From the NCBI GenBank assembly GCA_041659205.1, contig JBAZYS010000002.1, positions 87,806 to 151,805 of the forward strand: DNA of 64,000 bases, written 5' to 3'. The notes beneath the pieces are model-generated. The model ran no database searches and was not told the DNA's origin. It saw nothing but the letters and a program-made list of their open reading frames with translations. Below, piece by piece: positions 1,731-62,529 of this stretch; the stretch's first letter is position 1; every line of letters starts with the position of its first letter. The stretch comes from Minisyncoccota bacterium. GTDB taxonomy: Bacteria > Patescibacteriota > Minisyncoccia > Phycocordibacterales > UBA9973. Position numbers and translations under genes: made by a program.

Positions 1731-3113
1731 ATGTCAAAAAGAAACTTTATACTTTTAATAATCGTCTTAGTCATCCTCACTCTTGGGGTGTTGGGTTTTC
1801 TGTACCTTCAGCAACCAACTAGCCCGGGAGGGGATAGTACTGGCACAAACTTTGGTTCAAAATTTAATCCCTTTGGAACGAGTGACACAAATAAACCACC
1901 CACTCCACCTCCTCCTGTAGATGTTTCTGGATATGAACCAGCTCCTTCGACTCCAGATGCATTAGTAAAATTAAGAAAAATTTCTAGTATGCCCATAGCT
2001 GGTTTTACGGTATTTTCCAAAGAAAGATTAAAAGATGTAGTTGCCCCGGCAGTAACTCCACTAACAGATACTCCCGCATCCGCAGACGCCCCTGCAGTAA
2101 TTTCTGCCCCGAAGACACCAGCAAAGACAAATACAAAAATAACTAAGCCTACACCACCACTTACAGAATTCATGCCTGCTTTGAGATATGTAGCTCGAGC
2201 TGATGGAAACATTTATCAAACTTTTGCCGACAGGGTTCTTGAACAAAAGTTTTCTGTCACAATAATTCCTAAAATATATGAGGCTTTCTTCGGCAACAAT
2301 GGAAGCTCTGTAATTATGAGATATTTAAAGGGTGATGTTAAAACAGTTGCCACTTTTATCGGAACTCTTCCAAAGGAAATATTGGGCGCAGACACAACGG
2401 TCAGTAATGAAGTAAAGGGAACATTTTTGCCTGATAACATAAAAGACATAAGTCTGCTTCCTGACGGATCTAGCGCTTTTTACTTATTTAATGTCGGAGA
2501 CAATACAATAGGCACTACTCTCAACTTCGTCACAAATAAAAAGGCCCAAATTTTTGACTCATCTTTCAACGAATGGTTATCAGTTTTTTCAAATACCAAA
2601 ACGATTACTTTAACTACTAAACCTTCTTCGGAAGTCCTTGGATATATGTATACATTAAATACTGGTACTAAAAATTTTACTAAAACTCTCGGCGGCATAA
2701 ATGGACTCACGACACTCGCTAGTCCCAGTGGAAACTTGGTTCTTTTTAGTGATAATAATTTATTTCTCAATGTTTATCACACAGACACTAAAACAACAGA
2801 CCCACTCGGGGTGAAAACTCTACCAGAAAAATGTGTCTGGAATAAAACAAGTGACACTGCTTATTGCGGAGTCCCTAAATATATTGCAAGTGGTGGATAT
2901 CCAGACAGCTGGTACCAGGGAGAAGTTTCTTTCTCTGACCAAATCTGGAAAATAGATATCAAAACAGGAAATGCAACAATCATCGCAGATCCAGTAGCTG
3001 TACAGGGGGGAGAAGACACAGACAGCATAAAACTTGCATTAGATGACGGAGAAAATTACTTATTCTTTGTGAACAAAAAAGATTCCTACCTCTGGGAACT
3101 TGGGCTTAAATAA
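1731..3113 (+). CDS. membrane-anchored Pro/Thr-rich hypothetical protein
   Basis: N-terminal TM helix followed by a PPTPPPP-rich linker and a ~350 aa extracytoplasmic domain. No recognisable catalytic motif. Confidence 0.4.
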   Translation: MSKRNFILLIIVLVILTLGVLGFLYLQQPTSPGGDSTGTNFGSKFNPFGTSDTNKPPTPPPPVDVSGYEPAPSTPDALVKLRKISSMPIAGFTVFSKERLKDVVAPAVTPLTDTPASADAPAVISAPKTPAKTNTKITKPTPPLTEFMPALRYVARADGNIYQTFADRVLEQKFSVTIIPKIYEAFFGNNGSSVIMRYLKGDVKTVATFIGTLPKEILGADTTVSNEVKGTFLPDNIKDISLLPDGSSAFYLFNVGDNTIGTTLNFVTNKKAQIFDSSFNEWLSVFSNTKTITLTTKPSSEVLGYMYTLNTGTKNFTKTLGGINGLTTLASPSGNLVLFSDNNLFLNVYHTDTKTTDPLGVKTLPEKCVWNKTSDTAYCGVPKYIASGGYPDSWYQGEVSFSDQIWKIDIKTGNATIIADPVAVQGGEDTDSIKLALDDGENYLFFVNKKDSYLWELGLK

Positions 3114-3130
3114 ATAAATTAATTCATAAA

Positions 3131-3224
3131 AGAAATACTTTAAAAGGGTACAGATTTTTTGAAGCTTAAAAAATCCTGAAGTTTTCGTGTCGCCACACTC
3201 AAAACCCCCTTTTAAAGTATTTCT
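3131..3224 (+). repeat. intergenic palindromic repeat family 1, copy A: conserved core GGTACAGATTTTTTGAAGCTTAAAAAATCCTGAAG...AAAACCCC enclosed by an 18-bp perfect inverted repeat
   Basis: The core at 3149..3206 recurs at 15340, 28910 (reverse complement), 30838 and 31801. Flanks AGAAATACTTTAAAAGGG (3131..3148) and CCCTTTTAAAGTATTTCT (3207..3224) are perfect inverted repeats. It lies between the convergent 3' ends of CDS 1731..3113 and jag. Confidence 0.8.
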
Positions 3225-3235
3225 TTTATTTTCTT

Positions 3236-3724
3236 TTAAACAGAGCCAGTGTATTTAATTACTACTCGGCGGTCACGACCCATGCCAATAGATTCGGTTT
3301 TGAGGTCATTTGCTTCAGATAAAAATTCATGCACAATCCTACGTTCAAAAGCTGACATTGGGTCAACTTCTATATTTGATTTAAAATATCTTGCTCGCTC
3401 TGACATCATATGGGCAACCGCTCGAACACTTTCCACATGTTTCTTTTGAAAACCATTTATATCAATAATGATACCTAAGCCTGAATGATCTTTTTCCCCT
3501 ATCCCTGGGATAGGGGAAGATTTTGACTCAATAATTCTATGAACAAGGTGGCTTAAAGCTTGCAATCCCTCTCCCTCTCTTGAAATAAAGAAATGCGGTT
3601 CACTTACTTCCACTGAAACCCAAATATTTTTAGGACCGTCTTCTACAACAGAAATTCCATTTAACTTTACAGTTGTTTTTTCAATCAACTCTTTTATTAA
3701 ATTTTGAATTTCTTCTTGCTTCAT
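3236..3724 (-). CDS. jag: Jag/KhpB RNA-binding protein (KH + R3H domains)
   Basis: R3H motif FERRIVHEFL. Conserved position next to yidC in the rpmH-rnpA-yidD-yidC-jag cluster. Confidence 0.8.
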   Translation of the reverse strand: MKQEEIQNLIKELIEKTTVKLNGISVVEDGPKNIWVSVEVSEPHFFISREGEGLQALSHLVHRIIESKSSPIPGIGEKDHSGLGIIIDINGFQKKHVESVRAVAHMMSERARYFKSNIEVDPMSAFERRIVHEFLSEANDLKTESIGMGRDRRVVIKYTGSV

Positions 3725-6951: not shown

Positions 6952-8049
6952 ATGAAAATAGAATGCTCGACAGAAAAAATAAAAAATGTGATTTCTCAAG
7001 TGGAAAGAATTACTGGTAAAAATTTAACCCTTCCAATTCTAAATTCCATCTTATTAATTGCTTCCGGTAATTCTTTAAAATTTAGATCTACAAATTTAAG
7101 TCTTGGTATAGAGATTGAAATCCCGGCAAAAATTGAGAAAGAAGGGAATCTTGCAATATCTGGTTCTGTTTTAAACGCAGTTTTTTCAAACGTTTCCCAA
7201 AATGAAAATGTATTTCTAGAAGAAAAAGATGGAAATCTTTTGATTAAAACAAAAAAAAGCCAAATAAAGCTTAAAAGTCAGCCTTGTGAAGATTTTCCCA
7301 CAATACCAATGGTTACAGGAAATAGTTTTGAAATAGAATCAAGTAAGTTAATAGATGGGATAAAATCAGTTTATTATAGTTCTTCTGTTTCAGATATTAA
7401 ACCTGAAATATCAAGTGTTTTTCTTTATACAAATGACGAGAATCTTGTTTTTGTTTCCACTGATTCGTTTAGGCTTGCAGAAAAGAAGGTCAAAGTAAAA
7501 GGGTTTGAGGAGATTTTAGGAATTCTTATTCCATATAAAAACATAGGAGAAATATTGAAAGTTTTTGGAGAAGTTAAAGGTGTAATTAAAGTGTGTTTTA
7601 ATAAAAACCAAATTTCTTTTTCTTCTGAAAATACCTACCTTACATCCCGAATAATAGACGGAATATTTCCAGATTACAGACAAATTATTCCAAAAGAATC
7701 CTCAACCGATGTGGTGGTGCTCAAGCAAGATTTATTGAATGCTTTAAAACTTTCAAATATTTTTTCAGATAAGTTTAACCAAGTTAATCTTAAAATTAAC
7801 CCCAAAGAAAAAGTTTTTGAGCTCTCTTCATCAAATAATGATATTGGTGAAAATAAAACATATTTAGATGCTGTGTTGAGAGGGGAGGAAGTAGAACTTG
7901 GGTTTAATTATAAGTATTTTTTAGATTGTTTTCAGTCAATCAATACAGACAGTGTTAACATAAAGTTGTCCGGGGCTTCTCGTCCAATAGTTATCTCTCC
8001 TGTTTCTGATTCATCCTTTACTTATCTCATAATGCCAATGAATAGATAA
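6952..8049 (+). CDS. dnaN: DNA polymerase III beta subunit (sliding clamp)
   Basis: Three-domain ~365 aa protein directly after dnaA with a typical DnaN N-terminus. Confidence 0.9.
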   Translation: MKIECSTEKIKNVISQVERITGKNLTLPILNSILLIASGNSLKFRSTNLSLGIEIEIPAKIEKEGNLAISGSVLNAVFSNVSQNENVFLEEKDGNLLIKTKKSQIKLKSQPCEDFPTIPMVTGNSFEIESSKLIDGIKSVYYSSSVSDIKPEISSVFLYTNDENLVFVSTDSFRLAEKKVKVKGFEEILGILIPYKNIGEILKVFGEVKGVIKVCFNKNQISFSSENTYLTSRIIDGIFPDYRQIIPKESSTDVVVLKQDLLNALKLSNIFSDKFNQVNLKINPKEKVFELSSSNNDIGENKTYLDAVLRGEEVELGFNYKYFLDCFQSINTDSVNIKLSGASRPIVISPVSDSSFTYLIMPMNR

Positions 8050-12258: not shown

Positions 12259-12374
12259 ATTTTTTTTAATTTAAATTTTTAATAAGCGACCAAAAACAAA
12301 CGCTATCTAATTTATTCTTTTGTAACAAAATCCAAAAGGATTGGCAATAGCAAATGTGGATAACCTAACTATAG

Positions 12375-12470
12375 AAATATAGTCTTTTAAAAAGCATTGC
12401 GACCAGCTACCGAGCGAGTATAGCAAATTTTCAGCAGAAAATTATGTGCGGTTTTTAAAAGACTATATTT
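12375..12470 (+). repeat. GC-rich miniature repeat family 2, copy 1, enclosed by a 19-bp perfect inverted repeat
   Basis: Core 12394..12451 (GCATTGCGACCAGCTACCGAGCGAGTATAGCAAATTTTCAGCAGAAAATTATGTGCGG) shares AATTTTTCAGCAGAAAAATAT and a GC-rich hairpin with the copies at 54148 and 62386. Flanks AAATATAGTCTTTTAAAAA and TTTTTAAAAGACTATATTT are perfect inverted repeats; the right one overlaps the ruvC stop. Confidence 0.7.
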
Positions 12471-12958
12471 TTATAGTTTTGCCCTTTTAAATGTGCAAAA
12501 GCTGTAATAGCGATGGCAATAGCATCCAATTCATCGTCTGACTTTTTAGAATTATCTATATCCACTAATATTTTTACCATTTTTATTATTTGTTCTTTAT
12601 TTGCTTTTCCATAACCCGTGGTAGCTATTTTTATTTGAGGGGGGGAGGCTTCAAATATTTTTAATCCAGCATTTGTGGCTTCATAAATTACTACCCCGCG
12701 TGCTTCGGCGACGTGCATGACTGTTTTATGATTAGTAGTTAAAAATAAAGTTTCTATCGAAAGAACATCAGGTTTGTATTTTTTTATTATTTTTTTTACT
12801 TCTTCACCGATTAAAAGTAATCGTTCATTAAATTCTAATTTGGCAGAAGTTTTAAAGCATTCTGAAAAAATTACAGCTTCTTTTTTATCACCTTGTTTTT
12901 TCTCTAAGACCGCGACACCGAGGCGTTCATATCCTGGATCTATTCCTAAAATTATCAT
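12455..12958 (-). CDS. ruvC: crossover junction endodeoxyribonuclease RuvC
   Basis: MIILGIDPGYERLGVAVLE with RNase-H-like fold catalytic Asp/Glu. 167 aa. Confidence 0.9.
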   Translation of the reverse strand: MIILGIDPGYERLGVAVLEKKQGDKKEAVIFSECFKTSAKLEFNERLLLIGEEVKKIIKKYKPDVLSIETLFLTTNHKTVMHVAEARGVVIYEATNAGLKIFEASPPQIKIATTGYGKANKEQIIKMVKILVDIDNSKKSDDELDAIAIAITAFAHLKGQNYKNIVF

Positions 12959-13982: not shown

Positions 13983-15035
13983 TTATATTAATTTATTTTG
14001 CAAATTTTCTGGTAAGTCGAAATCTAGATGTTCATATGCTTTGCTTGTTGCTACTCTTCCACGCGCTGTACGCTCAAGGAGACCAAGCTGTATTAAATAT
14101 GGCTCTATTACTTCTTCTACGGTAGCTTCTTCTTCGGACATTGCAGCACCAATAGTTTTTAGCCCTACGGGGCCACCCTTGAATTTTTCAATTAATATTT
14201 CTAAGAATTTTCTATCGGAAGAGTTTAACCCAATATCATCAATTGCGAGCATATTTAAGGCTTCTTTTACTGTTTTTTTATCTAAATCTTTTTTGTGTAC
14301 TTGGGCAAAGTCTCGACAACGTTTCAAAAAGTAGTTTGCAGTACGTGGAGTGAAGCGACTTCGTTCCGCAATTTCTTTTAATGCTTCTTCTTCCAGTTTT
14401 ATTTTTAAAAGTTTACTGGACCTTTCGATAATTTTTGCAATTTCTTCATTGGAATAAAATTCTAAACGGAAAACTCCTCCCGAAAAACGAGAACGAAGAG
14501 GGGAGGAAACCATCGCGACACGAGTGGTGGCTGCAATTAATGTGAAGGGAGGTAAGTCGAGTTGAATGGTTCGTGCGGATGGGCCCTTGCCGATAATAAT
14601 ATCTAAAACGCCAGACTCCATCGCAGGGTAGAGAATTTCCTCAACCATTTTATTAAGTCGATGAATTTCATCTATAAAAAGAATATCTCCAGCAGCCAAG
14701 TTTGTGAGAATAGAAGCGAGGTCACCAACTTTTTCTATCGCTGGGCCAGAAGTAATTTTCATTTGTCTGCCAGTTTCTTTTGCAATCAAATGCGCGAGAG
14801 TTGTTTTCCCTAATCCTGGTGGTCCATAGAAAAGAATATGTTCCGGGATGTGTCCGCGCTCTTCGGCCGCTCGCAGTAAGACATTTAGGTTATCTTTTAT
14901 GTGTTTTTGACCGATATATTCGTCCCAGTGGGTAGGGCGGAGAGTTTGATCAAGAAAAGAGTCATCAATACCCCCTTTTTGTTCGATGCTTGAATTGACT
15001 ATTTCTTTAGCTTTTTTACTTGACATTGGTTTCAT
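13983..15035 (-). CDS. ruvB: Holliday junction branch migration helicase RuvB
   Basis: AAA+ Walker A GPPGLGKTTLA, sensor motifs and winged-helix C-terminus. Confidence 0.95.
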   Translation of the reverse strand: MKPMSSKKAKEIVNSSIEQKGGIDDSFLDQTLRPTHWDEYIGQKHIKDNLNVLLRAAEERGHIPEHILFYGPPGLGKTTLAHLIAKETGRQMKITSGPAIEKVGDLASILTNLAAGDILFIDEIHRLNKMVEEILYPAMESGVLDIIIGKGPSARTIQLDLPPFTLIAATTRVAMVSSPLRSRFSGGVFRLEFYSNEEIAKIIERSSKLLKIKLEEEALKEIAERSRFTPRTANYFLKRCRDFAQVHKKDLDKKTVKEALNMLAIDDIGLNSSDRKFLEILIEKFKGGPVGLKTIGAAMSEEEATVEEVIEPYLIQLGLLERTARGRVATSKAYEHLDFDLPENLQNKLI

Positions 15036-15095: not shown

Positions 15096-15318
15096 TTATA
15101 GCATTTGTTGTTCGCCTTATATAGTATAATAGTTTTAAGAGATTAAGCAGAAGGCATTAATCTCTAAGCAATCAGCCACAGGTTATACGAATTTGCATAG
15201 GACGTTTTGGTTACTTTTATTAGTTCACTGGAACCATCCTATAATACTTTGTTACTTTTGGGGCCCAGCTCCGAAAGGATTGTTTAGAGATTAATGCTTT
15301 TTTTATTTGTAAAATTAA

Positions 15319-15420
15319 ACCAAGAATAAAGTTTTTGTCGGTACGGATTTTTTGAAGCTTAAAAAATCCTGAAATTCTCAGCTCGTCAGCTTCGAAACCC
15401 CTTAAAAACTTTTTCTTGGT
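15319..15420 (+). repeat. intergenic palindromic repeat family 1, copy B, enclosed by a 17/18-bp inverted repeat
   Basis: Core 15340..15403 (GGTACGGATTTTTTGAAGCTTAAAAAATCCTGAAATTCTCAGCTCGTCAGCTTCGAAACCCCTTAAAAAC). Flanks ACCAAGAATAAAGTTTTT and AAAAACTTTTTCTTGGT. It sits at the 3' end of pilB. ORF-track ORF 15220..15435 is a translation of this element. Confidence 0.8.
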
Positions 15421-15424
15421 TTTT

Positions 15425-28329: not shown

Positions 28330-28802
28330 TGAAAAAAGAAAACGTTTTAATCTTACATAATATACGAAGCGTCTCCAACGTCGGTGCGATGTTTCGTACG
28401 GCAGACGCAGCCGGAATAAATAAAATTTATTTGACTGGTTACACCCCAGCACCGCTTGATCGTTTCGGTAGGAAAAGAGGAGACTTGGCAAAGTCAGCAC
28501 TCGGTGCTGAAGAATTTGTGCCCTGGGAACAAAAGAAAAGTATTTCTGCACTACTTACTAAATTAAAGAAGGAAAATTTTTTAATTATTGGCATAGAGCA
28601 AGACAAAAAGTCTATTGATTATAAAAAGGTAAAAATTAAACAAAAGAATGCATTCTTGGTGGGTGAAGAGGTGGCTGGAATTTCTAAAGAAAATCTAAAA
28701 AAGTGCGATGTTATTGCTGAAATACCAATGCGTGGGAAAAAAGAATCCTTAAATGTATCTGTGGCGCTGGGGATCGCTTTATTTAGAATATGTAACTTAT
28801 AA
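28329..28802 (+). CDS. SPOUT-superfamily RNA 2'-O-methyltransferase (TrmH/SpoU family)
   Basis: SpoU motifs: LVGEEVAGIS, AEIPMRGKKESLNVSVALGIALF. Confidence 0.8.
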   Translation: MKKENVLILHNIRSVSNVGAMFRTADAAGINKIYLTGYTPAPLDRFGRKRGDLAKSALGAEEFVPWEQKKSISALLTKLKKENFLIIGIEQDKKSIDYKKVKIKQKNAFLVGEEVAGISKENLKKCDVIAEIPMRGKKESLNVSVALGIALFRICNL

Positions 28803-28895
28803 TGTCCGCATAAAATTTTGCTGAATTTTTGCTCAAGACTCGGCCCGTCGGCCTCCGTAGCTATTATAAATTTCATATTCTAAATTATTGGATAA

Positions 28896-28999
28896 GATAA
28901 AGAATAAAGTTTTTAAGGGGTTTCAAAGCTGACGAGCTGAGAATTTCAGGATTTTTTAAGCTTCAAAAAATCCGTACCGACAAAAATTTTATTTTTTAT
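28896..28999 (-). repeat. intergenic palindromic repeat family 1, copy C (reverse-complement orientation)
   Basis: The reverse complement of 28910..28978 reads GGTACGGATTTTTTGAAGCTTAAAAAATCCTGAAATTCTCAGCTCGTCAGCTTTGAAACCCCTTAAAAAC. Imperfect AT-rich inverted flanks. It lies between the convergent 3' ends of trmH-like and mutM. Confidence 0.8.
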
Positions 29000-29001
29000 C
29001 T

Positions 29002-29874
29002 TTACTTCTGATGCACTGAGCAAAAGTGGGCACTACGGCCGTTTACTACTATTCTTTTTATGATGCCCCTACAGCCTATTTTTCTACATTTTTCTCCTGT
29101 GCGTCTGTAGGCTTCGTGGTGCATTTGGAATTTACCTGGCAGGCCATAAATATTTTTATAATCTGACATTGAGTCTCCCCCGAAATCTATACCTTTTTTC
29201 AGTGTTTCTTTTATTGCTTTGAATATTAGTTCTAGCTCCTTTTTGTTGATTTTTGAAACTTTTCGTTCTGGGTGCACACTAGCTCGCCAGAGTATTTCGT
29301 CGGAATAAATATTTCCAATACCAGCGATGATACTCTGATTTATCAGAACTGTTTTTATCTTTCCGTTTGGTTTTTTATTTAATTGCTCATTTAGTTTTTC
29401 TAAAGTGAAATTTTTTTCTAGGGGCTCTGGACCGATATTATTTAGATGTCTTGTGTTATGTGCAGTTTTTGTATCAAGAAGAGTAATCTTTCCAAATTTT
29501 CTTAAATCAGAAAATACTAAATATTTTTTATTAGAAAGGGAAAAAACAACATGGGCAAATTTAATTTTGGGATCCTTCCCATAAAAAAGGTACCCTGTCA
29601 TTTTTAAATGTACGAGTATCGTTTTACTTGCCCCGATATGGCGTGGGCCCCCAGAAAGATTTATCAAAATATTTTTTGCTCGTCTTTCTATAGACAAAAC
29701 TTTTTTCCCTATAATTTCTTTCCTGAATACAGTAAAAAACTTAGGATTAGCAATTGATTCCTTTTGGCGTTTGTCTTTAGTGGACAAATCTGTCCAAACA
29801 TTTGTTATTTTTAGACCTAAAATTGTCTTTTCCAGGCCTCGTTTTGTTGTTTCTACTTCTGGTAATTCTGGCAT
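29002..29874 (-). CDS. mutM: formamidopyrimidine-DNA glycosylase (Fpg/MutM family)
   Basis: N-terminal MPELPEVE catalytic Pro2/Glu3. C-terminal zinc finger CRKIGCRG...C..H. Confidence 0.9.
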   Translation of the reverse strand: MPELPEVETTKRGLEKTILGLKITNVWTDLSTKDKRQKESIANPKFFTVFRKEIIGKKVLSIERRAKNILINLSGGPRHIGASKTILVHLKMTGYLFYGKDPKIKFAHVVFSLSNKKYLVFSDLRKFGKITLLDTKTAHNTRHLNNIGPEPLEKNFTLEKLNEQLNKKPNGKIKTVLINQSIIAGIGNIYSDEILWRASVHPERKVSKINKKELELIFKAIKETLKKGIDFGGDSMSDYKNIYGLPGKFQMHHEAYRRTGEKCRKIGCRGIIKRIVVNGRSAHFCSVHQK

Positions 29875-29956
29875 TCTGTTAATAAATTAAAAATAATAAC
29901 ATTATCTTAGCACGAGTTTGCAGATTTTTTAACGGGACACGTGTTATAATCATTCA

Positions 29957-30817
29957 ATGTTAATGAAAAGATTACGATTTATATTATTTATTTTTTCAAT
30001 ATTTTTCCTGGTGCCTCTTTCAAAGAGCCAAGCTAGTGTTGCCGCGCCTATTAAAATTTTATTAGTTCCAGGGCATGATGATGAAGTTTGGGGAGCAAAA
30101 TATAGGAATGTAAAAGAGGCAGATATGAATTTGGCAGTAGCTACCCAGATTTATAATCTCTTAAAGAAAGATAAAAGATTTGATGTCTATGTTACTCGTG
30201 ACAATAATGGTTATACAAAAGATTTTGCAGATTATTTCCCTGCACAAAGAGATAAAATTTTAGCTTTTGAACAAAATGCTAAAAAAATAATGAATAGTAA
30301 TATTTCTAGTGGTAATTTTGTTCAGAAAGAGAACGCACCACATCACACCGTGAGTGAAGACATTGCCTTACGTTTGTATGGTTTTAATAAATGGGCGAAT
30401 GAAAATAAAATAGATGCAGTAGTTCATTTTCATTTTAATGATTATCCGCGTTCCAATAGCCAAAAAATTGGCAAGTACAAAGGATTTGCCATCTATATGC
30501 CAGATGGGCAATTTGTAAATTCTAGGGAAAGTGGACAGCTCGCCGCTAATATTTTTACCCAGTTGCATAAAAAATATGCATCCAGTGACTGGAAACCAGA
30601 AGCAGGAGGACTTGTACCAGACCAAAAGCTCATTGCTATTGGTGCGAATAATACATTGAATGCTTCCGTGCGCTCTGTTCTAATAGAATATGGATATGTT
30701 TATGAAAAGAAATTTAGAACAAAGGCTGCGCGTCTTTCCGCTTATAAAAACATGGCAAGTCTTACCTCAACAGGAATAAAAAATTATTTTTTCCCCAAAA
30801 AAGTTAGCACAAAATAA
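29957..30817 (+). CDS. secreted N-acetylmuramoyl-L-alanine amidase (Amidase_3 family)
   Basis: Signal peptide. LLVPGHDDEVWGAKY...YVTRDNN matches the amidase_3 zinc-binding core. Confidence 0.8.
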   Translation: MLMKRLRFILFIFSIFFLVPLSKSQASVAAPIKILLVPGHDDEVWGAKYRNVKEADMNLAVATQIYNLLKKDKRFDVYVTRDNNGYTKDFADYFPAQRDKILAFEQNAKKIMNSNISSGNFVQKENAPHHTVSEDIALRLYGFNKWANENKIDAVVHFHFNDYPRSNSQKIGKYKGFAIYMPDGQFVNSRESGQLAANIFTQLHKKYASSDWKPEAGGLVPDQKLIAIGANNTLNASVRSVLIEYGYVYEKKFRTKAARLSAYKNMASLTSTGIKNYFFPKKVSTK

Positions 30818-30923
30818 ATAAAAAGATTTTTGCCGGTACGAATTTTTTGAAGCTTAAAAAATTCTGAAATTCTCGGCTCGTCAGCCTCGAAACCCCTTAA
30901 AAACCTTTTTATTTATTTTGTAC
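30807..30923 (+). repeat. intergenic palindromic repeat family 1, copy D, enclosed by a 19-bp inverted repeat that overlaps both convergent stop codons
   Basis: Core 30838..30904 (GGTACGAATTTTTTGAAGCTTAAAAAATTCTGAAATTCTCGGCTCGTCAGCCTCGAAACCCCTTAAAAAC). Flanks GCACAAAATAAATAAAAAG and CTTTTTATTTATTTTGTAC. The left flank contains the amidase stop and the right flank the ruvA stop. Confidence 0.8.
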
Positions 30924-31479
30924 TTAATATTTTTAGTGCCTCACGGATTCTGGTGTTCATGGTTGCGTCAGGGGAGCACTTCTTTAATGCCTCCCGTGCT
31001 TCGTTTTGAGAATAACCTAGTGATTTTAAAGCCTCGAGTGCATCCAATTCTTCTTTAAGGGAACTTTCTCCTTTATCTTCTCCTATCTTGTCTCGCAACT
31101 CTATCACAATTTTTTCTGCCGTTTTTTTACCTATACCAGATATTTTTGTAAGGTATGAGACGTCTCCAGTCCCAATAGCTTTTTTGAGTGTTTCGATTGA
31201 AGCAATTCCAAGGATTGCGAGAGCCGAGCGTGGCCCAATGCCAGATACATTTATGAGCATTTCAAAGAATTCTAATTCTTCTCGGTCTAGAAAGCCGTAT
31301 AGGTCGAGTGCATCTTCCCGCACTCGGGTATGAATGGAGAGCATTATTTCATCACCGACTTTTTTTACTTTAGATAAAGTGTCTGGAGAGGCACTTATTT
31401 TATAACCAACTCCGCCCGTCTCCACTATTAAGAATTTATCTGTTTTTAATATAATTTTTCCTTTTATGCTTCCGATCAT
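30913..31479 (-). CDS. ruvA: Holliday junction DNA helicase RuvA
   Basis: MIGSIKGKI N-terminal OB domain. Two HhH motifs (GIGPRSALAIL, GIGKKTAEKI). C-terminal RuvB-binding domain. Confidence 0.9.
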   Translation of the reverse strand: MIGSIKGKIILKTDKFLIVETGGVGYKISASPDTLSKVKKVGDEIMLSIHTRVREDALDLYGFLDREELEFFEMLINVSGIGPRSALAILGIASIETLKKAIGTGDVSYLTKISGIGKKTAEKIVIELRDKIGEDKGESSLKEELDALEALKSLGYSQNEAREALKKCSPDATMNTRIREALKILSTK

Positions 31480-31532
31480 CCATTAAGCATAGCATAATTG
31501 CATTTTTTTGGGTTTTTTGCTATATTACATAT

Positions 31533-31784
31533 ATGCCAATAACACAATCAGCTAAAAAAGCAATCCGAAGTTCCCTTCGCAAGAAGGCCTTTAATGATGG
31601 ACGTAAGAAAATAATGAAGGAGGTAATCAAAAAGATTGAGAAAATTGCTAAAACCGACAAGGCTGAAGCTGCAAAAATGCTTTCTTCTGCTTTCCAAGCT
31701 ATAGATAAATCTGCACAAAAAGGTGTTATTAAGAAAAATAACGCTGCTCGTAAGAAATCTCGTTTATCAAAGTTGGTCAAATAA
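31533..31784 (+). CDS. rpsT: 30S ribosomal protein S20
   Basis: MPITQSAKKAIRSSLRKKAFN... Lys/Ala-rich 83 aa typical of S20. Confidence 0.9.
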   Translation: MPITQSAKKAIRSSLRKKAFNDGRKKIMKEVIKKIEKIAKTDKAEAAKMLSSAFQAIDKSAQKGVIKKNNAARKKSRLSKLVK

Positions 31785-31885
31785 AGAATAATATTTTTTT
31801 GGTACAGATTTTTTGAAGCTTAAAAAATCTTGAAGTTTGCTCGCCGTCGCTCGCAAAACCCCTTCAAAATAATATTCTTTATTTT
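31780..31885 (+). repeat. intergenic palindromic repeat family 1, copy E
   Basis: Core 31801..31866 (GGTACAGATTTTTTGAAGCTTAAAAAATCTTGAAGTTTGCTCGCCGTCGCTCGCAAAACCCCTTCAAAAT). Near-perfect inverted flanks AAATAAAGAATAATATTTT and AAAATAATATTCTTTATTTT. The left flank overlaps the rpsT stop. Confidence 0.8.
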
Positions 31886-31894
31886 TATAAATTT

Positions 31895-32158
31895 ATGAAT
31901 CATTTACTTGAATTTTATGGAACTGAGTGCCCACATTGCGTGGATATGCATCAACTCGTGGAGAAGTTAGAAAAAGAAGAAGGAATTAAAGTTGAAGCGA
32001 TAGAAGTTTGGCATAATAAAGAAAATGAAAAGCGTTTACTTGAATTAGACAAGGACCTTTGTGGGGGAGTACCTTTTTTCTATAATACAAAAACAACTAA
32101 ATGGATTTGTGGAGGAGATAGTTACGAAAATCTAAAAGCTTGGGCGCAGGGAAAATAA
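31895..32158 (+). CDS. thioredoxin-fold protein with CPHC active site (glutaredoxin-like)
   Basis: 87 aa. CxxC motif (CPHC) near the N-terminus, typical of small thioredoxin/glutaredoxin-like proteins. Confidence 0.6.
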   Translation: MNHLLEFYGTECPHCVDMHQLVEKLEKEEGIKVEAIEVWHNKENEKRLLELDKDLCGGVPFFYNTKTTKWICGGDSYENLKAWAQGK

Positions 32159-61958: not shown

Positions 61959-62381
61959 ATGGCAAAGAAAATAACTAAAAAAATTAAATTACAAATCCAG
62001 GCCGCAAAGGCAACCCCTGCGCCCCCTTTAGGGCCCGCACTCGGTCAAGCTGGTATTAACATTGGTGATTTCGTTACTAAGTTTAACGCTGCAACAGCTA
62101 AGATGGCTGGAGACAAAGTTGGAGTTTCTATCACTGTTTACGAAGACCGAAGTTATGATTTCGTTATTAAGACTCCTCCCGTTACAGGACTTATCCTTAA
62201 AGCAGCTGGTATAGAGAAAGGTTCAGGTAAAAACGCTTCTACAAAAGTTGGTAAAATAACTAAAGCTCAGGCTCTAGAAATTGCTAACAAGAAACGCGCA
62301 GACTTGAATGCCAAGGACGACCAAGGTGCGATCAACATCGTCGCCGGCTCCGCTCGAAGCATGGGGGTAGAAGTAATATAA
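61959..62381 (+). CDS. rplK: 50S ribosomal protein L11
   Basis: [35 protein letters not shown] is the canonical L11 N-terminus. Confidence 0.95.
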
Positions 62382-62473
62382 ATTACTTATACCGGCCGGA
62401 GCCCGACGGGGCGAGGCGTGCCCAGACAATTTTTCAGTAGAAAAATATGTGTGGGTAGAAGTAATATAAATTA
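62366..62473 (+). mobile_element. GC-rich miniature repeat family 2, copy 3: a 68-bp insert flanked by 20-bp direct repeats GGTAGAAGTAATATAAATTA (target-site-duplication-like) that include the rplK stop
   Basis: DR1 at 62366..62385 covers rplK codons GVEVI*. The insert 62386..62453 is CTTATACCGGCCGGAGCCCGACGGGGCGAGGCGTGCCCAGACAATTTTTCAGTAGAAAAATATGTGTG. DR2 is at 62454..62473. Confidence 0.7.
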
Positions 62474-62501
62474 GTAATATAAATTAATTTTTACACTAAA
62501 A

Positions 62502-62529
62502 AGCCAACGGTCCGACCGTTGGCTTTTTT
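62502..62529 (+). terminator. rho-independent terminator after rplK (AGCCAACGG-TCCGA-CCGTTGGCT + T6)
   Basis: Perfect 9-bp stem followed by TTTTTT. Confidence 0.85.

Follow-up and report, generated by a model that had tools for sequence, protein, structure and literature searches.

Several kinds of small palindromic DNA lie at or near the ends of bacterial genes, and provide the closest parallels to an element found in a 64,000-nt stretch of a Minisyncoccota genome (GenBank assembly GCA_041659205.1, contig JBAZYS010000002.1, positions 87,806 to 151,805), called the window below. The element, named Family 1, occurs five times in the window (copies A to E), and has a branched core enclosed by complementary arms. 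Together with its sister families it probably makes up a superfamily of palindromic interspersed elements, mobile or recently mobile, which reside at gene ends and resemble miniature inverted-repeat transposable elements (MITEs), enterobacterial repetitive intergenic consensus (ERIC) sequences and Correia elements. The candidate phyla radiation (CPR, or Patescibacteria) makes up a large share of bacterial diversity, and its expression signals and mobile DNA are almost unstudied. The family is abundant, and its place is at gene ends, which in many cases are also the exact ends of transcription units; it is a ready marker for gene ends and recent genome change in CPR, and an entry point to termination or transcript protection, as to DNA mobilisation, in minimal cells.

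Correia elements of Neisseria (CREE/NEMIS) are non-coding palindromes of ~100–150 bp, multi-copy, located near genes, present or absent according to the strain, and no transposase specific to them is known. Their transcripts are long hairpins acting as terminators and RNase III targets. Family 1 shares the features of the DNA, but Correia elements end in conserved 26-bp terminal inverted repeats flanked by a TA duplication, whereas Family 1 has variable ends and a conserved branched centre of 62 nt. ERIC sequences (IRU) of enterobacteria are imperfect palindromes of ~127 bp found in transcribed intergenic regions of a wide group of hosts. Related genomes may carry or lack an ERIC at a given site, as holds for Family 1, and compensatory change has been reported in ERIC evolution. 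ERICs differ in residing in unrelated hosts, and fold into one long hairpin that has no conserved three-way junction. The likeness of Family 1 to Correia and ERIC elements is one of architecture only.

Repetitive extragenic palindromes (REPs) and the bacterial interspersed mosaic elements (BIMEs) that they form, associated with REP-associated tyrosine transposases (RAYTs), and the palindrome-associated transposable elements (PATEs) of the IS200/IS605 type, also reside within operons, between genes, or at the 3' ends of genes; in Family 1 as in these, recognition would go through folded hairpins, not terminal repeats, and a strand bias is possible. REPs are single palindromes of 20–40 nt, marked by a 5' GTAG and clustered; Family 1 cores are 62 nt long, branched, and dispersed singly. 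Integron attC sites are imperfect palindromes at gene 3' ends in which structure counts more than sequence. There, the outer R''/R' sites (GTTRRRY) are conserved and the centre varies; in Family 1 the order is reversed, and the outer arms carry no conserved motif. The window shows no cassette array context. Intrinsic terminators are found directly past stop codons, at the same sites in relatives, and the A- and T-tracts that flank them are found in a subset of the elements. A terminator has a short G+C-rich stem and a small loop, whereas Family 1 has an A/T-rich stem of ~24 pairs capped by a 62-nt branched core. As classical MITEs, Family 1 elements are small, non-coding, present in many copies and polymorphic for insertion at orthologous sites. 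Unlike MITEs, they keep in common only the inner T5/A5 tracts and the adjoining junction, rather than terminal inverted repeats. The conserved branched centre, the free complementary arms and the membership in a superfamily of several families, spread over many candidate phyla, set Family 1 apart from all these palindromic repeats.

Structure and covariation of the elements

Family 1 elements measure ~115–130 bp and are made of three layers, an asymmetric core of 62–63 nt, an inner inverted repeat and the outer arms. The consensus and the pair counts given below were derived from 114 clean copies found in other genomes. In order, the consensus features an arm, T5 plus a 2–3-nt junction, GGTAC, hairpin 1, TGAAR, hairpin 2, A(A)CCCC plus a junction, A5, and the complementary arm. 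The core folds as a three-way junction, in the shape of a Y. Hairpin 1 (RGATTTTTT-GAAGCTT-AAAAAATCY) has an A/T-rich stem of 9–11 bp, and is a near-perfect 25-bp palindrome with AAGCTT. Hairpin 2 (module sequence CUCGGCUCGUCAGCCUCG) includes a 3–5-bp stem, a conserved TC/TC internal loop, a second stem of 2–4 bp, and a C-G-N-C loop. Among unpaired nucleotides, TAC, TGAA, one A and the C-run vary little or not at all. The inner inverted repeat, a hallmark of the family, is made of the T5 and A5 tracts with their 2–3-nt junction. Outer arms (~15–25 nt) are free in sequence and remain complementary; the pairing of the A/T-rich arms involves a median of 24 matched pairs.

Paired residues change together. 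Alternative pairs were counted at positions 69–77 (GC 57, CG 48, TA 8), 70–76 (TA 56, CG 54), 64–83 (CG 62, TA 33, GC 13), 63–84 (TA 98, GC 15) and 33–55 (GC 105, AT 9). In an alignment of 41 sequences, with the structure specified by hand, changes on both sides were observed at 23 of the 30 pairs, in the hairpins as in the closing stem. The covariation score was 0.304, against 0.110 in shuffled alignments, and none of 500 shuffles reached the observed value; when partners were slid by 1–3 columns the score did not exceed 0.121. Hairpin 1 covaries also in copies found without the 21-mer used to scan databases (loci L124, L168, L137 and L071; see below), as TTTTTC/GAAAAA in L124 and another A/T stem in L168.

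In the window, a 35-nt core pattern, with up to 2 mismatches allowed, gave five matches, each starting where the core of one of the copies begins in Table 1 (at 28978 in copy C, which lies on the reverse strand), and none in dinucleotide shuffles of the same DNA. A Family 1 covariance model, run over the whole window with filters off, retrieved the same five copies only, at 87–98 bits; the next match scored 24.7 bits. The five-copy repeat is far above chance. Arms and core of each copy fold as a single long hairpin of 105–137 nt (z-scores of -3.9 to -9.5, either strand), and the arm sequence differs from locus to locus. A gene 3' end adjoins every copy. Copies A, C and D are flanked by convergent genes, copy B is preceded by pilB, copy E by the gene for ribosomal protein S20. 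An initial annotation of this DNA, made from the sequence alone, had listed five core copies at gene 3' ends or between convergent genes, each in an inverted repeat peculiar to its locus, and had placed the amidase and ruvA stop codons in the arms of copy D; all this agrees with the pattern and model searches, the gene context of copies A to E, the comparison of the arms and the sequence of the junction. The coordinates given for the cores were off by 2–3 nt for two copies. The two hairpins with compensatory changes that it had described recur in the 114 copies, their covariation survives in the larger alignment, and the gap between real and shuffled scores bears out its view that structure is conserved rather than randomly decaying.

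Sister elements in the window feature the architecture of Family 1 and a CTC-stem-CGTC-stem-TC hairpin, and differ in hairpin 1. Sister-family elements score 22–43 bits with the Family 1 model (Family 2 and Family 4 copies 25–43 bits), and sister families align with Family 1 position by position along G-Y-A-C, the A/T-rich hairpin 1 and hairpin 2. Family 1 is therefore viewed as one branch of a superfamily, whose members are, judging from these alignments, homologous.

Some copies carry additional structures at fixed points. An extra hairpin is located in the junction, after CCTG, in L050 and L104, and inside hairpin 2 in L056; an insert of ~45 nt is found in the hairpin 2 loop of Family 3 elements (L133, L155, L175, L197, L126, L141 and L203). 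Such hairpins and inserts resemble the variable expansion segments of structured RNAs. In a Family 1 sub-family a second conserved stem layer is present, with a CTYTTWCTYGG / CCTSMRCGA internal loop, and hairpins reach ~150–160 nt. It includes L090, L091 and L107, and also L001, L022, L023, L025, L068, L070, L074, L084, L098 and L108; the outer helix TACGAAACTC / GAGTTTCGTA is conserved in three loci of this sub-family.

Distribution and turnover at orthologous sites

The invariant 21-mer of hairpin 1 was used to scan one genome per species. More than 116 stretches matched and, among the matches listed, nearly all were from Patescibacteria metagenome-assembled genomes, labelled as Nomurabacteria, Paceibacterota, Parcubacteria, Vogel-, Yanofsky- and Yonathbacteria, Minisyncoccia and "Saccharibacteria"; three listed matches lack the rest of the core and are due to chance. 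Within this sampling, the superfamily has been met only in Patescibacteria/CPR, mostly in Paceibacteria-type lineages. The window itself encodes an S20 protein identical to one from a 163-kb contig of a Candidatus Paceibacterota metagenome-assembled genome. Five copies reside in the 64 kb of the window, and about one per 29 kb was found in 582 kb of independently chosen loci; overall, abundance is about one copy per 13–30 kb in genomes smaller than 1 Mb. The 21-mer had no match in viral contigs, and copy D with its arms had none in plasmid and phage collections (blastn). Rfam, searched over the whole window at gathering thresholds, identified only 7 tRNAs. A closer comparison with Rfam, which the initial annotation had proposed, gave no relevant match in release 15 at E<=10 on either strand of the 28700–31950 interval, which includes three Family 1 copies and a Family 2 element. 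Full-text literature searches returned nothing on the Family 1 element, which apparently is described here for the first time; as a new, strongly covarying motif it could join RNA family databases.

Gain and loss of elements were analyzed in relatives, in the neighbourhoods of S20 homologs 83–93% identical, where the gene order fpg-amidase-ruvA-S20-small ORF (open reading frame) is conserved. Where the amidase/ruvA junction lacks an element, the two stop codons abut (AAATAA|TTATTT in L117) or the genes overlap (L121); the spacer between the S20 gene and the next, when empty, measures 1 nt (L117, L121, L174). The S20 site is filled in L130 and empty in L137 and L185, and the flanks are 93–95% identical. 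Since relatives have neither core nor arms at the sites of copies D and E, the arms are not pre-existing terminators. Arms and core were shown to be gained and lost as one unit.

A metagenome scan with the conserved start of the gene following S20 gave 86 loci. Across relatives, the S20 junction holds nothing, an ordinary terminator made by an A-tract, a GC stem and a T-tract, elements of Families 1 to 4, or remnants. Family 1 is found at this site in at least 10 distinct versions in forward orientation and in reverse orientation in L178; in L168 the element is Family 1-like, but hairpin 2 is fully paired and hairpin 1 is of another kind. Elements of Families 2, 3 and 4 are found as well, those of Family 3 either bearing or lacking the ~45-nt insert in hairpin 2. 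The ordinary terminators at this site have short G+C-rich stems unrelated to the arms of the elements; the elements lie where ordinary terminators sit in relatives. The same kind of turnover was observed at the SpoU/fpg junction. Repeated occupation of the same sites was thus shown, with families that differ and cores in either orientation.

Elements were shown to be lost also by deletions leaving arm remnants or removing adjoining codons. L139 and L154 retain at the S20 site six bases (AGATTG) of a Family 3 arm, and L119 a truncated Family 3 element. The AGATTG residue had been considered as an inverted target duplication; it is a deletion remnant instead, because the start codon ATG has become GTG at the deletion junction. 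In L130 the SpoU and fpg genes are fused at overlapping ends, apparently after an imprecise loss that took terminal codons.

Table 1. Family 1 and sister-family elements of the window (arm length in nt and complementarity in %; score with the Family 1 covariance model)
Element	Position	Strand	Arms	Core	Bits	Context and remarks
Family 1 copy A	3126..3229	+	3126-3148 / 3207-3229 (23 nt, 100%)	3147-3209	98.3	460-aa ORF ending at 3113, convergent with a Jag/EloR-like gene ending at 3236
Family 1 copy B	15317..15422	+	15317-15335 / 15404-15422 (19 nt, 84%)	15340-15401	90.8	Begins 3 nt past the stop codon of pilB (-), hence core antisense to the pilB transcript
Family 1 copy C	28896..29000	-	~20 nt	28917-28978	91.5	Between SpoU-type methylase gene and fpg; 1 nt separates its end from the fpg stop codon (29002); forms a tandem with a Family 2 element
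Family 1 copy D	30797..30933	+	30797-30831 / 30899-30933 (35 nt, 86%)	30835-30896	88.9	Occupies the entire gap between the amidase and ruvA stop codons; both arms hold stop codons
Family 1 copy E	31779..31884	+	31779-31797 / 31866-31884 (19 nt, 95%)	31801-31862	87.5	Left arm opens with the last codon and stop of the S20 gene; next gene starts 10 nt past the right arm
Family 2 element	28781..28885	+			24.7	CTC-GGCC-CGTC-GGCC-TC hairpin
Family 2 element	12367..12478	-	27 nt, 96%			ruvC frame enters one arm
Family 2-like core	within 62365..62473	-		~62391-62452	21.7	Flanked by direct, not inverted, 21-nt gene-end copies (62365-62385, 62453-62473)

The 21-nt repeats beside the Family 2-like core derive from the end of the gene at 61959-62381; an ordinary terminator comes next (62500-62526).

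Gene ends, arms and orientation

Where a gene ends beside a core, on one side or on both, its stop codon is in most cases 15–42 nt away. Convergent genes of the window mostly overlap, are separated by gaps of 0–2 nt, or host an element; the exception is an 83-nt gap without a notable fold. Between 12 and 32 kb of the window only one strong ordinary intergenic terminator was found. Many genes in these genomes have a TATAAT 6–7 nt before the start codon, often directly after the T-tract of a terminator (TGnTATAAT), as in L146, L173, L194, L198 and L209 at the S20 site, and in L011, L037, L040 and L057. Such junctions suggest a very compact combination of terminator and leaderless promoter.

Arms differ between copies within one genome, and across genomes the outer arms form sub-families. 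At orthologous sites they are recognisably related, diverging yet still complementary. Family 1 arms showed no excess similarity to the local flanks and no general flank/arm direct repeat. The notion that arms are, as a rule, tandem or inverted copies of the flanks made at insertion was discarded on these grounds, and because the arms are absent from the flanks of empty sites.

In some cases arms and coding ends are entangled, and the resulting changes of protein C-termini (in RuvC and, probably, in RuvA and the amidase) matter for annotation. RuvC measures 167 aa in the window, 158–160 aa in most of ~120 listed homologs, which miss the 8-aa tail QNYKNIVF. The stop codon TAA was changed to CAA, and the frame runs for 8 codons into the arm of the Family 2 element at 12367..12478. 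The arm had been considered as ancestral coding sequence; the read-through, and the lack of the tail in the homologs, speak against this. At copy D, the amidase and RuvA both end with S-T-K-stop, encoded by the complementary arms (30806-30817 and 30913-30924); in relatives RuvA ends with GGK*, GNK* or SSS* (L121). Copy D thus appears to have rewritten both C-termini. The end of the SpoU-type gene (last 7 codons and stop) coincides with the left arm of the Family 2 element at 28781..28885, and the right arm is its inverted copy (21/23 nt). A sister-family element in L071 similarly has as right arm the inverted SpoU gene end (16/17 nt), and the gene-end sequence is not that of the window. The SpoU C-terminus is conserved in ~35 orthologs. 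As read from these sequences, the inverted copies may result from extension of the palindrome or from templated correction of one arm by the other; alternatively, a non-coding arm may have tracked the coding arm by long-term compensatory change.

Among the 114 copies, 60 lie between tandem genes, with the core in sense orientation in 41 and antisense in 19. Another 36 reside between convergent genes, 13 between apparently divergent genes, partly an artefact of gene calling, and 5 have one flank uncalled. At the S20 site 26 cores are sense and 2 antisense; these events are not independent. Cores are oppositely oriented at orthologous sites next to Jag (window and L013 versus L041) and between amidase and ruvA (window versus L088); they may have inserted independently, or flipped between their arms. 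Copy C and the L124 copy (7564-7643) at the SpoU/fpg site also have opposite orientations, with similar arms. The rare AGCT/AGCT hairpin 2 is common to these two copies and copy B. The copy C/L124 pair may likewise stem from independent insertions, but suggests that a core was inverted in place between its arms.

Origin and possible role of the elements

Elements gained and lost entire, sites occupied again and again, and the existence of multiple families argue for DNA which is mobile or has been so recently. The initial annotation had offered, next to a small RNA and a protein-binding site, a MITE-like element that targets terminator hairpins. This option came nearest as to the kind of element; targeting is at odds with empty sites, which have no hairpin. 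The same holds for its idea that an empty site should show the terminator hairpin without the core, as stop codons abut or genes overlap in the relatives. Its statement that the flanks are not terminal inverted repeats was too strong, given that inner arms are conserved, outer arms form sub-families, and arms are best seen as the fast-evolving part of the element. A discrete small RNA with its own promoter has lost ground. Stop codons 15–42 nt from the core leave no room for a promoter at those copies, and cores in both orientations (41 sense, 19 antisense) fit it poorly.

If the elements are mobile as proposed, the copying machinery would recognise the conserved structured core, not terminal repeats. 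Either compensatory change or templated correction of one arm by the other would keep the arms complementary, and the process would occasionally extend the palindrome into the adjoining gene end. In compact genomes, elements would survive only when located exactly between stop codons or just past one. The transcript would carry at its 3' end a hairpin closed by ~24 paired bases (median); this might serve termination, insulation or protection of the mRNA 3' end. In favour of such a role are the exact fit between stop codons, the convergent junctions that mostly have either an element or practically no gap, the single strong ordinary terminator between 12 and 32 kb, and the ordinary terminators that relatives often have at these positions.

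Several observations weigh against this picture. No ORF is tied to Family 1 copies, and no transposase or mobilising gene adjoins any copy. The IS608 TnpA and Escherichia coli RAYT proteins, compared by tblastn with 1.55 Mb of element-bearing DNA, gave nothing significant, in a weak test; the two best regions were a dehydrogenase/epimerase-like ORF, as read from its sequence, and an HNH protein. The conservation of the centre and the variability of the ends are the reverse of classical MITEs. No target-site duplication was seen in L130 compared with L137 and L185, nor a general direct repeat of flank and arm. As to the transcript, a run of 4 or more T is present at the distal end of the stem in 33–42% of the copies, irrespective of gene direction. 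Between tandem genes the next start codon is found at a median distance of 17 nt past the element, and at the S20 site a leaderless-type -10 box rarely follows, so that many downstream genes may be read through the element. Finally, signals of strand conflict: the types of mismatch, the wobble pairs of hairpin 2 and the sense orientation, twice as common, do not point to the same strand.

A more far-reaching proposal is that a system peculiar to CPR uses the Y-shaped core as its recognition module, either a new mode of moving DNA, in which the core is copied and the closing stem is built or repaired from the neighbouring sequence, or a lineage-wide RNA-protein system that makes or shields mRNA 3' ends in these minimal genomes. 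The former would explain both the arms that are inverted copies of gene ends and the cores flipped in place. On balance the proposal is unlikely.

An improbable alternative is single-stranded DNA movement in the manner of REPs and PATEs, the core hairpins being those recognised, on one strand during replication, by a HUH (Y1) transposase (IS200/IS605 or RAYT), and the arms secondary. Two conserved imperfect hairpins, conserved unpaired bases and the lack of conserved terminal repeats are what would be found in such elements, and the asymmetry of mismatches follows the orientation of the core, independently of the direction of transcription. At pairs 32–56 and 61–87, A.C was counted 20 and 47 times and G.T never, which favours the reverse strand; arm mismatches are G.U-compatible on the reverse strand in 80 cases, on the forward in 37, partly owing to one inherited position. 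Exposure on the lagging-strand template would, however, not be expected of the strand that would tolerate G.T. At 70 loci the G-rich strand bears the forward core, at 20 the other strand does, a skew confounded with gene strand; at convergent junctions alone the figures are 14 and 7. REPs and PATEs lack the long (20–30 bp), locus-specific outer palindromic arms of Family 1, and no TnpA, Y1 or RAYT homolog emerged from the weak tblastn test on element-bearing DNA.

The elements could instead be a host-encoded cis-acting RNA module, a structured terminator or 3'-untranslated region bound by a conserved protein, inherited vertically, rarely duplicated and not mobile. The conservation of the core over many candidate phyla, with stems that covary, would suit it, as would the exact packing between stop codons, the extra hairpins at fixed positions, known from functional RNAs (L050, L104, L056), and the preference for sense at the S20 site (26:2). 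The module is nonetheless hardly to be expected to be present in one genome and absent in another with flanks 93–95% identical, or to be replaced at one site, among close relatives, by at least 4 core families and both orientations; and 19 of 60 copies in tandem contexts are antisense to the flanking genes. This reading, too, is improbable.

That the core is a double-stranded DNA site, bound by a nucleoid, partition or uptake protein, or an extruded cruciform, with RNA irrelevant, is quite improbable. The near-perfect 25-bp palindrome of hairpin 1, the occurrence of both orientations, and the strictly Watson-Crick nature of hairpin 2, in which G.T (6) is not commoner than A.C (7) and wobble is thus not preferred, would fit. 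Free covariation of both half-sites is not expected at a sequence-specific double-stranded site, a folded single strand alone would account for the conserved TC/TC mismatch and the extra hairpins, and sequences for DNA uptake are shorter and occur in far greater numbers.

That the core is an RNA with catalytic or ligand-binding activity, either a new self-cleaving ribozyme or an aptamer in a terminator, is very improbable. The core resembles such RNAs in its three-way junction with invariant nucleotides (TAC, TGAA, A, CCC) and variable stems, and in being multi-copy and linked to mobile-looking DNA, as many small ribozymes are; but no Rfam family, with hammerhead, twister, pistol, hatchet and riboswitches included, matched at E<=10 on either strand, and transcription may cross the core in either direction. 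A hammerhead reading of CUGA...GAAAC was discarded, as the residue equivalent to the essential G8 varies (G in 67 copies, A in 47) and the one equivalent to G12 is often A.

The remotest of the readings holds that only the 60-nt core moves, inserting into the loops of locus-specific terminator hairpins already in place, as differing arms, the A-tract, stem and T-tract of ordinary terminators here and the ancestral coding sequence in one arm of two sister-family elements might hint; it is contradicted at sites D and E, where empty sites have no hairpin and practically no spacer, by same-site terminators with short G+C-rich stems unrelated to the arms, and by inner arms conserved family-wide.

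Taken as mobile or recently mobile palindromes, the elements would most plausibly act in the transcript as partial terminators, insulators or 3'-end protectors, roles also put forward for REP, ERIC and Correia elements.

Two minor observations concern the surroundings of the copies. A separate region of ~150 nt (15151-15300, + strand), between copy B and the start of ruvB, features a 23-bp closing stem (91% complementary) followed by T7. It looks like a structured RNA gene of its own, and had no match in Rfam at E<=1. ruvC (12455-12958), ruvB (13983-15035) and ruvA (30913-31479) each have a cruciform-capable element at or near one end, which may be a coincidence, given that ~8 elements reside in 64 kb.

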